IMG/VR virus record: IMGVR_UViG_2563366911_000001
Reading direction: 5' to 3' (one strand)
DNA from: a virus
Lineage: Duplodnaviria > Heunggongvirae > Uroviricota > Caudoviricetes
Length of the DNA: 64,000 nt
Positions 30,505 through 31,284 of the stretch are shown here, one piece after another. Numbering within the stretch: position 1 is the stretch's first letter; each line of letters starts with the position of its first letter. Both the position numbers and the translations under genes were made by a program. The notes beneath the pieces are model-generated. The model worked only from the letters and a program-made list of their open reading frames with translations, had not been told where the DNA came from and made no database searches.

Positions 30505-31284
30505 TAGCCGCATTCACCGCAACGGAAAGAGCATTCTTGGTGGACCTGTAGATTGGGATATGAACCCGTTACAGGAGAATGCTCTTACCTGTTACGTGCT
30601 CCGTTTCGTGGAGCTAACGGCGGGTGATCGGGCCGCACCAGACTGGACTTATTTCAGCGTTATGCTCATGCCAGAGAATCAAACTGTGATGGTCGGTGCT
30701 GAACTCCGACACAGGGTTGTAGCAAGCCCCGCAAAGCGCGCACTACTGTAGTTGCGGCACATCAGCCTGTGCATTCACCTCAATGTTGAGAACACTGGTT
30801 GTCACGCTGCAACGCAACATTTATTCGTAGATTGGGATATGACCCCGTTACGCCAGTGTTCTCAACGTTGTAGTGCCGGTTACGGTTCCGGCCAGGCCTC
30901 TTCCTCAACGGGGTGTTCTCCATACGGACTACCGTTTATTGGTCGTTCCTGCGGTTTATGTTGTGAAGCCAGATGCTTATCTTCTGGTTGCTTCAAAGAG
31001 CTGCACTTCATCACAACGGTAAGAGCACTCGATGCATTTAAGCCAAGCCCCATAAGGGAGAATGCCCTTACCTGTTGTGTTGTGATGACCGGTGCTGATC
31101 TCCGGCTTGCGGTTATTTCAGACTCTCACGGGCGTTTAATTGCCCCGCCGAACAGCTCTTTTCCGCAATAGCTGCAATGTCTTTCGCGCATCAGCCTGCG
31201 CATTCATCACAACGGTAAGGGTACTTCGTAGGGATTCGAACCCTCTGCCAAGCTCGGCGATCTCCGACGTCGCAAAATACCCTT
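30505..31284 (-). repeat. Four tandem paralogous stem-loop units (A 30505-30588, B 30771-30860, C 30998-31078, D 31197-31284) directly 3' of tRNA-Thr
   Basis: Each unit has 16-22-bp arms built on CACAAC(A)GGTAAGGG / CCCTTACCGTTGTG; loops of A and B share gattgggatatga(a/c)cccgttac; unit D loop has a TTCGAAT T-loop. Confidence 0.6.

Follow-up and report, generated by a model that had tools for sequence, protein, structure and literature searches.

The stem-loops that lie 3' of tRNA-Thr in a P1-like phage-plasmid belong to a large hairpin family, absent from Rfam and common to P1-like phage-plasmids, lambdoid and Stx phages, and the cryptic prophages of E. coli K-12. On balance, these units probably act as RNase III "punctuation" hairpins that cut a long non-coding phage leader transcript into separate RNAs. 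The DNA analysed here, referred to as the window, is the whole stretch of 64,000 nucleotides from IMG/VR virus record IMGVR_UViG_2563366911_000001. Positions 30360-31800 of the window show 99.6% identity to Escherichia phage RCS47 and 99% to P1. The C4 antisense RNA and sok are also encoded in it.

Hairpin units and spacer modules in the leader

The hairpin element is called the H unit and the spacer module S. The features of the region are as follows, from the highest coordinate downward.

32123-34387, minus strand: dmt, first in the gene order given for the ban region
~32100-32130, minus strand: C1-controlled ban promoter region, placed by alignment to the P1 annotation
After the ban promoter region, minus strand: "dicF-like" segment, which ends in an intrinsic terminator at 31941-31916
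31653-31733, minus strand: unit E; 5' arm CACAACAGGTAAGGGCGCTG at 31733-31714, 41-nt insert, 3' arm CAGCGTCCTTTCCTGTTGCG at 31672-31653; MFE -43.6 kcal/mol on the minus strand and -32.9 on the plus strand, z -5.5
31374-31449, minus strand: tRNA-Asn (GTT)
31296-31371, minus strand: tRNA-Thr (TGT), ending in CCA and followed by one G and then unit D
31208-31294, minus strand: unit D; arms at 31294-31275 and 31226-31208, 48-nt insert; MFE -42.7 kcal/mol on the minus strand and -36.3 on the plus strand, z -5.3
31079-31210, minus strand: S1 (GUGAUGAAUGCGCAGGCUGAUGCGC ... CCGGAGAUCAGCACCGGUCAUCACAAC), ~98% identical to lambdoid phage leader segments
31012-31079, minus strand: unit C; arms at 31079-31060 and 31030-31012, 29-nt insert; MFE -34.5 kcal/mol on the minus strand and -24.7 on the plus strand, z -5.2
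30779-30872, minus strand: unit B; co-varying diverged arms at 30872-30854 and 30797-30779, 56-nt insert with a 25-nt motif at 30851-30827; MFE -44.4 kcal/mol on the minus strand and -41.9 on the plus strand, z -5.9
30684-30779, minus strand: S2, a paralogue of S1 (GGUGAAUGCACAGGCUGAUGUGCC ... UCGGAGUUCAGCACCGACCAUCACAG)
30518-30596, minus strand: unit A; arms at 30596-30577 and 30536-30518, 40-nt insert with the 25-nt motif at 30572-30548; MFE -35.4 kcal/mol on the minus strand and -32.5 on the plus strand, z -4.5
30402-30521, minus strand: S3, following unit A and directly upstream of the operon's first ORF
Downstream of the hairpin region, minus strand: 78-aa membrane ORF, then a 275-aa SPFH lipoprotein
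Downstream of the SPFH lipoprotein ORF, minus strand: tRNA(CAU), then ban

From the ban promoter to the first ORF, the RNA is untranslated for ~1.7 kb. The terminator at 31941-31916 is the sole minus-strand terminator-like site in the leader before that ORF, and a second such site, at 30141-30125, is within the coding region of the operon. Co-transcription of the hairpin units with the tRNAs is plausible, since both are on the same strand, no promoter or terminator was found between them in the minus-strand leader, and in P7 the tRNA genes are annotated as being under the C1-controlled operator Op(ban). The conserved 200-nt block that runs from unit E to tRNA-Asn showed no significant structure (z -0.9). 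CRISPRi at trnT, plp, and upl found the region dispensable for plaque growth of P1.

The stem-loops of the preliminary description are confirmed, and every feature it described is present in the sequence. The four hairpins 3' of tRNA-Thr are real, with z-scores of -4.5 to -5.9 and none of 200 shuffles folding equally well, and the T-arm-like hairpin AGGG-UUCGAAU-CCCU of unit D (31230-31244) lies within the MFE fold. Several details required revision. The 5' arm of unit D runs on to 31294, 10 nt further than first reported. The sequence reported at 31719-31733 as a further arm copy is indeed a copy, but also the 5' arm of unit E, a complete hairpin (31733-31653) that is the fifth of the set and is upstream of the tRNAs. 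Units A and B do share a loop motif, although its length is 25 nt rather than 22 nt, with 96% identity between the two (30548-30572 and 30827-30851). Unit B had been described as built on the same arm as the others, which is wrong; its arm has diverged and co-varies (TACAACGTTGAGAACACTG / CAGTGTTCTCAACATTGAG).

The arm 15-mer CACAACAGGTAAGGG has three exact minus-strand copies (31065-31079, 31280-31294, and 31719-31733) and a copy with three mismatches at 30582-30596. With up to three mismatches allowed, five matches were present in the window, all at the hairpin region, compared with 1.23 expected, and none of 100 shuffles reached five. A relaxed arm-pair scan of the whole window found no unit beyond A, B, C, D, and E.

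Each H unit is a conserved ~20-bp helix with CACAAC/GUUGUG at its base and an exchangeable 9-93-nt insert as its cap. The helix has recurring irregularities: an extra A at position 7, U·U or U-A at position 10, and several G·U pairs. In all five units the minus-strand fold was the stronger one, and the plus-strand versions are weaker because the stems hold G·U pairs. The stems of the window units are 19-25 bp long. On the transcribed strand they form near-uninterrupted double-stranded RNA of about two helical turns, which is the kind of duplex sought in an RNase III hairpin.

In the leader, H units alternate with S modules. An S module begins with a G(G)UGAAUGC hairpin and ends with a CCGGAGAUCAGCACCGG-type hairpin followed by CAYCACA(AC). 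The ends of S1 (GUUGUGAUGA / UCAUCACAAC) are able to pair, in competition with the base of unit D, and when D and S1 were folded jointly the base of D changed partner and closed S1. Because the hexamers CACAAC and GUUGUG are common to the H stem base and the S-closing stem, alternative pairing registers are possible. By the same modeling, pairing could also form between any 3' arm and the 5' arm that follows it, so that the intervening module is enclosed. S3 matched the Rfam STnc100 model (RF02076) over positions 31-147 of 206 at a sub-threshold 38.7 bits (gathering 47, E 2e-6). Over its first 28 nt, S3 shares 93-96% identity with the dicB leader of Qin and the kilR leader of Rac.

The same leader also carries a module of ~180 nt at 31911-31734, which unit E directly follows. 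It contains the frame GCA AAC GAU GAU CUG AUG AUG GUA GCG GCC UAA (ANDDLMMVAA*) at 31854-31822. The E. coli ssrA tag is ANDENYALAA. IMG/VR holds 125 copies of the module, with 41 distinct sequences. The tag frame encodes 17 different peptides, 16 identified by script and one, ANDSEVLMAA (locus L146), by eye. All have 10 codons, no in-frame start codon, and the pattern A-N/K-D/E/S-...-A-V/A-A. An alternative AUG frame in the module is variable, at 5 to 13 codons. Reading the variants by eye, we found that the module stop codon is in a hairpin loop and that this hairpin, like a pseudoknot downstream, co-varies from variant to variant. Rfam tmRNA families gave repeated weak matches on independent module variants, and single-sequence MFE folds were inconsistent across variants. 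Neither a tRNA-like domain nor a full tmRNA was detected by tRNA/tmRNA finders in 26 related loci. The tag module usually has H units on either side, some with T-arm inserts. No description of the module was found in the literature, and full-text searches with the tag peptides gave nothing relevant.

A hairpin family in phage and prophage leaders

To delimit the family, an exact-arm scan of IMG/VR was followed by a relaxed Hamming scan of the fetched loci, and E. coli prophages were included. The relaxed scan gave at least 93 oriented distinct units, at least 61 curated distinct arm pairs, and at least 73 distinct inserts of 9-93 nt. The strand of flanking ORFs in IMG/VR loci was too noisy for assigning unit orientation, and some orientations were set by energy.

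Covariance analysis across relatives, a check named in the preliminary description, showed that the helix co-varies. In an alignment of the 61 distinct arm pairs with inserts replaced by GAAA, two-sided change occurred at 15 of the 20 pairs. Paired cells amounted to 93.4%, a fraction that is inflated because the arm pairs were chosen partly for foldability; slid controls paired at 34-53%. None of 500 shuffles reached any of the five measures. The inner stem contained 67 G·U pairs and 10 A·C pairs.

The 3' arm with the GUGAAUGC motif is present in 1041 of 5426 complete E. coli genomes (19%), at a median of one place per genome, and is never annotated there. Many P1-like and lambdoid phages carry the same helix. 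In annotated cases, the units are always in an operon leader and sense to the operon. One location is between Q and the holin gene, just past a tR'-like terminator; another is between the repressor gene and the early-left genes; and in Qin and Rac the units are in the dicBF and kil operons, respectively. The inserts, the shortest being 9 nt and the longest 93 nt, are unrelated to each other, so the insert is not the defining part of the unit. Rfam searches at gathering thresholds and at E up to 10 returned no family for the units, only spurious miRNA-precursor matches to the long stems. Full-text literature searches with the arm sequences likewise gave nothing relevant.

Alignment of the relatives P1, P7, D6, SJ46, and Ro157c2YLVW revealed cassette-like exchange of units at the arms. 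Following tRNA-Thr-CCA-G, unit D is found in P1, D6, and SJ46, unit C in P7 and Ro157c2YLVW, and D+S1+C in the window and RCS47. P1 has a 196-nt deletion relative to the window, and the junctions of the lambdoid-like S1 block fall within arms. In SJ46 a deletion reaches from the motif of B to that of A, and Ro157c2YLVW lacks the motif of unit A. In P7 and D6, the spacer between B and A is replaced by a tRNA-Ser(UGA)-like gene, and a hairpin unit with a different insert begins 1 nt past its CCA. P1 and P7/D6 are alike in having a hairpin unit that starts 1 nt past a tRNA CCA.

Probable RNase III processing and the Qin and Rac homologues

The preliminary description offered three accounts of the units: decayed tRNA duplicates, processing signals, or a family of small structured RNAs. 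We favor processing, because the conserved, co-varying part of the unit is the stem rather than the loop and because the Qin and Rac homologues appear to coincide with RNA 5' ends, that of an RNase III-dependent RNA in Qin and that of KilS in Rac.

E. coli K-12 has two members of the family, one in each of these prophages. The Qin member is in the dicBF operon between ydfC and dicF, at 21174-21257 of our locus L133. Its bulge and mismatch architecture is that of unit A, with the same dot-bracket pattern. In a manual alignment, its arms (CATAACGCGAAAGCGCATGG / CCGTGCGCTTCCGGTTGTG) match the consensus arms at 14 of 20 and 15 of 19 positions. The neighborhood is related as well. The segment after the Qin hairpin is homologous to the dicF-like region of the window (blastn, window 32060-31966 with Qin 21263-21359, E 3e-13), and S3 has a homologue in the dicB leader.

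Faubladier, Cam and Bouché reportedly described, in 1990, a site in the dicBF operon at which RNase III processes the transcript upstream of dicF. A count of 190 nt upstream from the 3' end annotated for DicF (21435) leads to L133 position 21246, which is within the 3' arm of the Qin hairpin (21239-21257). In that part of the transcript, the MFE fold predicts no uninterrupted duplex longer than this hairpin. A 190-nt DicF RNA is lost in an rnc mutant, and a 53-nt form of DicF is RNase E-dependent (Vanderpool-lab preprint, bioRxiv 10.1101/2023.04.14.536235). From the RNA length, we infer that the RNase III cut giving the 190-nt DicF is inside the 3' arm of the Qin hairpin; the cut is placed by this gel-estimated length and not by the published site number 813/814. 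The Rac member is in the kil operon, at 10566-10481 of locus L135. The sRNA KilS has been verified by northern blot, and the authors of that study considered an own promoter possible (PMC8175672). Its 5' end is approximate. By its annotation, KilS starts 4 nt ahead of the Rac hairpin's 3' arm.

By analogy, cleavage of the P1-type copies would be the same as in Qin. Cuts in units E and D would then free the tRNA-Asn/tRNA-Thr pair. Because unit D begins 1 nt after CCA, only a short trailer would remain 3' of tRNA-Thr after the cut in D, for exonucleases to remove. The spacer modules of STnc100/PasD type would come free through cuts in D, C, B, and A, which would also define the 5' end of the downstream mRNA. 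Two observations go beyond a bare processing signal: units A and B have diverged less in the 25-nt motif of their inserts than in their stems, and T-arm-like hairpins are enriched among inserts.

A part of the P1 map ~1.7 kb long, in which the annotation places upl and plp on the other strand, is re-read here as a structured non-coding leader. Under the RNase III reading, a single biogenesis rule would cover prophage RNA 5' ends that were previously unexplained or ascribed to processing, namely, those of the DicF long form, KilS, and STnc100/PasD-type RNAs, and the same rule would extend to phage tRNAs. The conserved arms also account for phages swapping modules as cassettes. The T-arm inserts and the adjacent tmRNA-tag-like module suggest that these leaders contain more than processing signals.

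Alternative readings and known systems

A possible but rather unlikely alternative is that the units are genes for small stable structured RNAs. The inserts, several of them T-arm-bearing mimics of the tRNA elbow, would be the products, and the stem would be a maturation or stabilizing scaffold, as in a pri-miRNA cluster or pre-rRNA stem. T-arm-like hairpins occur in 13 of the 73 distinct inserts listed, across ~7 unrelated insert families, with a chance expectation roughly estimated at 0.1-0.2 and none on the reverse strand except for one mis-oriented copy. The 25-nt motif of A and B is conserved at 96% despite the diverged stems. The T-loop of unit D is 78 nt from that of tRNA-Thr, exactly the spacing between tRNA-Thr and tRNA-Asn. 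The T-arm of unit D is directly adjacent to the 3' arm, an arrangement like that of an acceptor/T minihelix, and a variant of the unit in another phage keeps the stem extension by compensatory changes (UUUUG/CGAAG to UUGGG/CCCAG). However, one family member has a loop of just 9 nt, the unit A motif is deleted in Ro157c2YLVW and the B-to-A stretch in SJ46, D and C are interchanged at the same site among relatives, and no Rfam family matches any insert. The preliminary suggestion of a family of small structured RNAs holds in that the family is large and missing from Rfam. The inserts may be products themselves, which is compatible with the processing model.

A broader proposal seems to us distinctly improbable. 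P1-like and lambdoid leaders would be polycistronic non-coding "operons" from which RNase III hairpins cut out mimics of the translation machinery: tRNAs, T-arm minihelices, and a tmRNA-like module with a start-less 10-codon tag frame, a stop in a helix-5-like loop, and a co-varying pseudoknot. The T-arm minihelix and tag module would together form a split phage trans-translation device or a decoy.

Decay of duplicated tRNA genes is an explanation to which we give little weight. The unit D insert does contain a T-arm, a D-arm-like hairpin (GCGA/UCGC, with the T-arm-like hairpin at 31244-31230), and a 7-bp acceptor-like stem extension, and its position continues the 78-nt spacing of the tRNA array. 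P7 and D6 have a tRNA-Ser(UGA)-like gene in the same region. Unit D is nevertheless the only unit whose insert resembles a tRNA, its anticodon arm is missing, and cloverleaf elements are absent from C, B, A, and E. The relaxed tRNA search named in the preliminary description gave no match in any unit; ARAGORN found only the three true tRNAs, and the Rfam tRNA model at E up to 10 had zero matches in 30505-31294. The conserved stem recurs with unrelated inserts at many loci without tRNA genes, and the aligned relatives show no intermediates joining the units to an intact tRNA. As a general account of the units, decayed tRNA duplicates fail.

An anti-Rho or antitermination role is similarly doubtful. 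Judged by sequence, the 3' arm (UGCUCUUUCC, then GUUGUGGUG) would resemble rrn boxA plus boxC and would recruit NusB/NusE for read-through of the leader. The consensus 3' arm includes the opening 8 nt of the rrn boxA, UGCUCUUU (the rrnH boxA reads tgctctttaacaa), and the ~1.7-kb leader is untranslated, has a single intrinsic terminator, close to its beginning, and contains five copies of the unit. Yet the boxA-like motif is buried in the co-varying helix, it is degenerate in D, E, B, and the Qin and Rac copies (UGCGCUUCC, UGCGCCUCC), and Q-modified late operons should have no need of boxA. We also considered an rrn-type boxA as such, for which a single-stranded GCUCUUUAACAA-like motif conserved across members was sought; the motif is paired and is not conserved family-wide.

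Still less probable is that the units act as DNA, either as a MITE-like mobile repeat or as attC-like recombination sites for cassette shuffling. The same site has D only, C only, or D+S1+C in relatives, with S1 block junctions inside arms, and the arms form an inverted repeat in which an extra base is conserved. Homologous recombination between identical arms of 20-40 bp accounts for these swaps, however. Carrier E. coli genomes have a median of one place each, and the places inspected were all in a prophage or P1-like plasmid. The units are always sense to the operon, the excess of G·U over A·C pairs points to RNA, and the arms do not fit the attC core GTTRRRY. A non-systematic look at the stretches inspected revealed no target duplications and no integron integrase. 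MITE-like repeats such as ERIC and Correia would be expected as numerous dispersed copies within a genome, in both orientations and at unrelated sites. The units do not show this; 1041 of 5426 genomes carry any copy, the median is one place in each, and every place inspected belonged to a prophage leader or a P1-like plasmid.

It is very unlikely that the stretch encodes the opposite-strand proteins Upl and Plp with incidental hairpins: upl and plp are annotated across it on the plus strand of P1 (NC_005856), with matching window ORFs at 30560-30751 and 30752-31171, but these ORFs have no Pfam match and no promoter-like site, the P7 annotation has no CDS there, part of the stretch is replaced in P7/D6, part is deleted in SJ46 and 196 nt are missing in P1, and both genes are non-essential by CRISPRi.

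Two further candidates were rejected. The units are not intrinsic terminators, as no U-tract follows any of them; GUGAAUG or AUGAAG follows instead. Mimicry of the pre-23S processing stem was considered by checking the rrnH flanks. The AGGU(U)AAG and ACAAC/GUUGU elements are not kept in unit B, Qin, or Rac, and we regard the likeness as coincidence.

Among known systems, the RNase III stems of pre-16S and pre-23S rRNA also are long helices that bracket stable RNAs, including spacer tRNAs, in an untranslated operon. The pre-23S stem has a loose sequence resemblance to the units (GUUGUGA|GGUUAAGC ... GCUUAACCUU|ACAAC). In the leader studied here, in contrast, the helices are local hairpins with small inserts. 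The early and late RNase III sites of phage T7 are likewise paralogous hairpins, conserved in the stem and internally irregular, at which a polycistronic transcript is divided into units. They have no sequence similarity to the H units, and T7 separates mRNAs, whereas here tRNAs and non-coding modules would be separated.

The tRNA-linked repeats of the tyrT operon (rtT RNA) are also tandem units located just 3' of tRNA genes and, as is plausible for the H units, co-transcribed with them. The rtT repeats copy the 3' end of the adjacent tRNA, whereas among the window units a T-arm is present in unit D only and does not duplicate that of tRNA-Thr; unit D and tRNA-Thr resemble each other only over an 11-nt T-loop (10 of 11 nt). 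The Rfam rtT model gave no match at E up to 10. With the STnc100/PasD prophage sRNAs, the match is on the spacers and not on the hairpin units, and it scores 38.7 bits against the gathering 47. The S modules start with GGUGAAU and end in a CACCGGGAGGCACCCGGCACC-type hairpin like the STnc100 model, and both occur in prophage leaders.

The RNase III site of the Qin dicBF operon differs from the P1 leader in that P1 has five hairpins, which flank tRNAs and carry other inserts, and cleavage is shown for Qin only, where RNA length places the cut in the hairpin. The two nevertheless share a homologous hairpin, a non-coding stretch within a repressor-controlled phage operon, and homologous neighbors, dicF-like on one hand and STnc100-like on the other.

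Tag Module Resembling tmRNA

The leader that carries the hairpin units also holds a tag module resembling the mRNA-like domain of tmRNA.

Features of the tag module (window coordinates)
31734-31911 (-): tmRNA-like 'mRNA-like domain'
31822-31854 (-): tag frame ANDDLMMVAA*, read as GCA AAC GAU GAU CUG AUG AUG GUA GCG GCC UAA
31700-31716 (-): terminal hairpin of the tag module, inside the insert of hairpin unit E

The tag frame in the window is without a start codon. Among 41 distinct phage variants, 17 tag peptides were obtained (16 by script and 1 by eye, from the sequence of locus L146), and every one was exactly 10 codons long. 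Those of other variants include ANEEMYLAVA, ANDEQFLAVA, and ANDDVVLMAA. Reading of the sequences by eye placed the stop codon of the frame in the loop of a co-varying hairpin, with a co-varying pseudoknot on its 3' side. Three Rfam tmRNA families gave weak matches to the module, and these matches were repeated on independent variants. A tRNA-like domain for the module was looked for and not found, and no description of the module was found in the literature.

The module ends at its 3' side in a hairpin whose loop, (G)UGUGAUUAA(UAA), is conserved, as seen in L130, L123, and other loci. The stems of this hairpin co-vary, with pairings of GCCCG/GGGC, CCCUGA/UCAGGG, and GGCGGGAG/CUCCCGCC. In the P1-like phages, it is located within the insert of unit E.

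Relatives in Lambdoid Phages and K-12 Prophages

Homologous hairpins were present in two cryptic prophages of E. coli K-12, and a spacer module of the window was related to leaders in the same prophages.

Hairpins in K-12 prophages, and the related spacer module
L133, 21174-21257: homologous hairpin in Qin
L135, 10406-10566: stretch with the homologous hairpin in Rac
Window, 30402-30521 (-): STnc100-like module S3 (sub-threshold match, 38.7 bits)

The KilS sRNA is annotated to start 4 nt 5' of the Rac hairpin's 3' arm. The 190-nt DicF precursor is RNase III-dependent (bioRxiv 10.1101/2023.04.14.536235), and its 5' end should fall within the Qin hairpin. S3 stands immediately 5' of the first ORF; its start shares 93-96% identity with the dicB leader of Qin and the kilR leader of Rac, and the spacer modules S1 and S2 are its paralogues.

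Some lambdoid leaders (L031, L032, L097, L123, L148, and L156) carry, directly 3' of a hairpin unit, a look-alike of 16S rRNA ~240 to 286. The phage segment reads AGCUAGAUGGUGGGGUAAUGGCUCACCAUGGCGACGA, and the E. coli 16S sequence is AGCUAGUAGGUGGGGUAACGGCUCACCUAGGCGACGA; the resemblance includes compensatory changes.

ORFs, tRNA Genes, and Read-Through of the Leader

Remaining features of the leader region
Window, 30560-30751 and 30752-31171 (+): ORFs matching annotated P1 upl and plp ('putative lipoprotein')
Window, 31450-31590 (-): ~140-nt block directly 5' of tRNA-Asn
L003/L004, 1138-1224 (-): tRNA-Ser(UGA)-like gene, D6 and P7
L002, 1950-2036 (-): tRNA-Tyr between Asn and Thr, Ro157c2YLVW
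Window, 31966-32060 (-): segment homologous to the Qin region upstream of DicF, preceding the terminator
Window, 31916-31941 (-): strong intrinsic terminator, 3' of the ban promoter and 5' of the tRNAs

The upl and plp equivalents run antisense across the hairpin array and are disrupted in P7, D6, and SJ46. No Pfam domain and no promoter were found for them, and these ORFs are probably annotation artefacts.

The extra tRNA genes in the leaders of relatives indicate that the leader acts as a tRNA-cassette slot. The ~140-nt block is nearly invariant in all six P1-like phages, and the sequence flanking it on the 5' side is variable. The fold predicted for 31450-31652, which covers this block, was not significant (z -0.9).

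Because the strong terminator follows the ban promoter and precedes the tRNAs, expression of the tRNAs and ban depends on read-through. This arrangement is much like that of lambdoid phages, in which the late genes need read-through of tR'.
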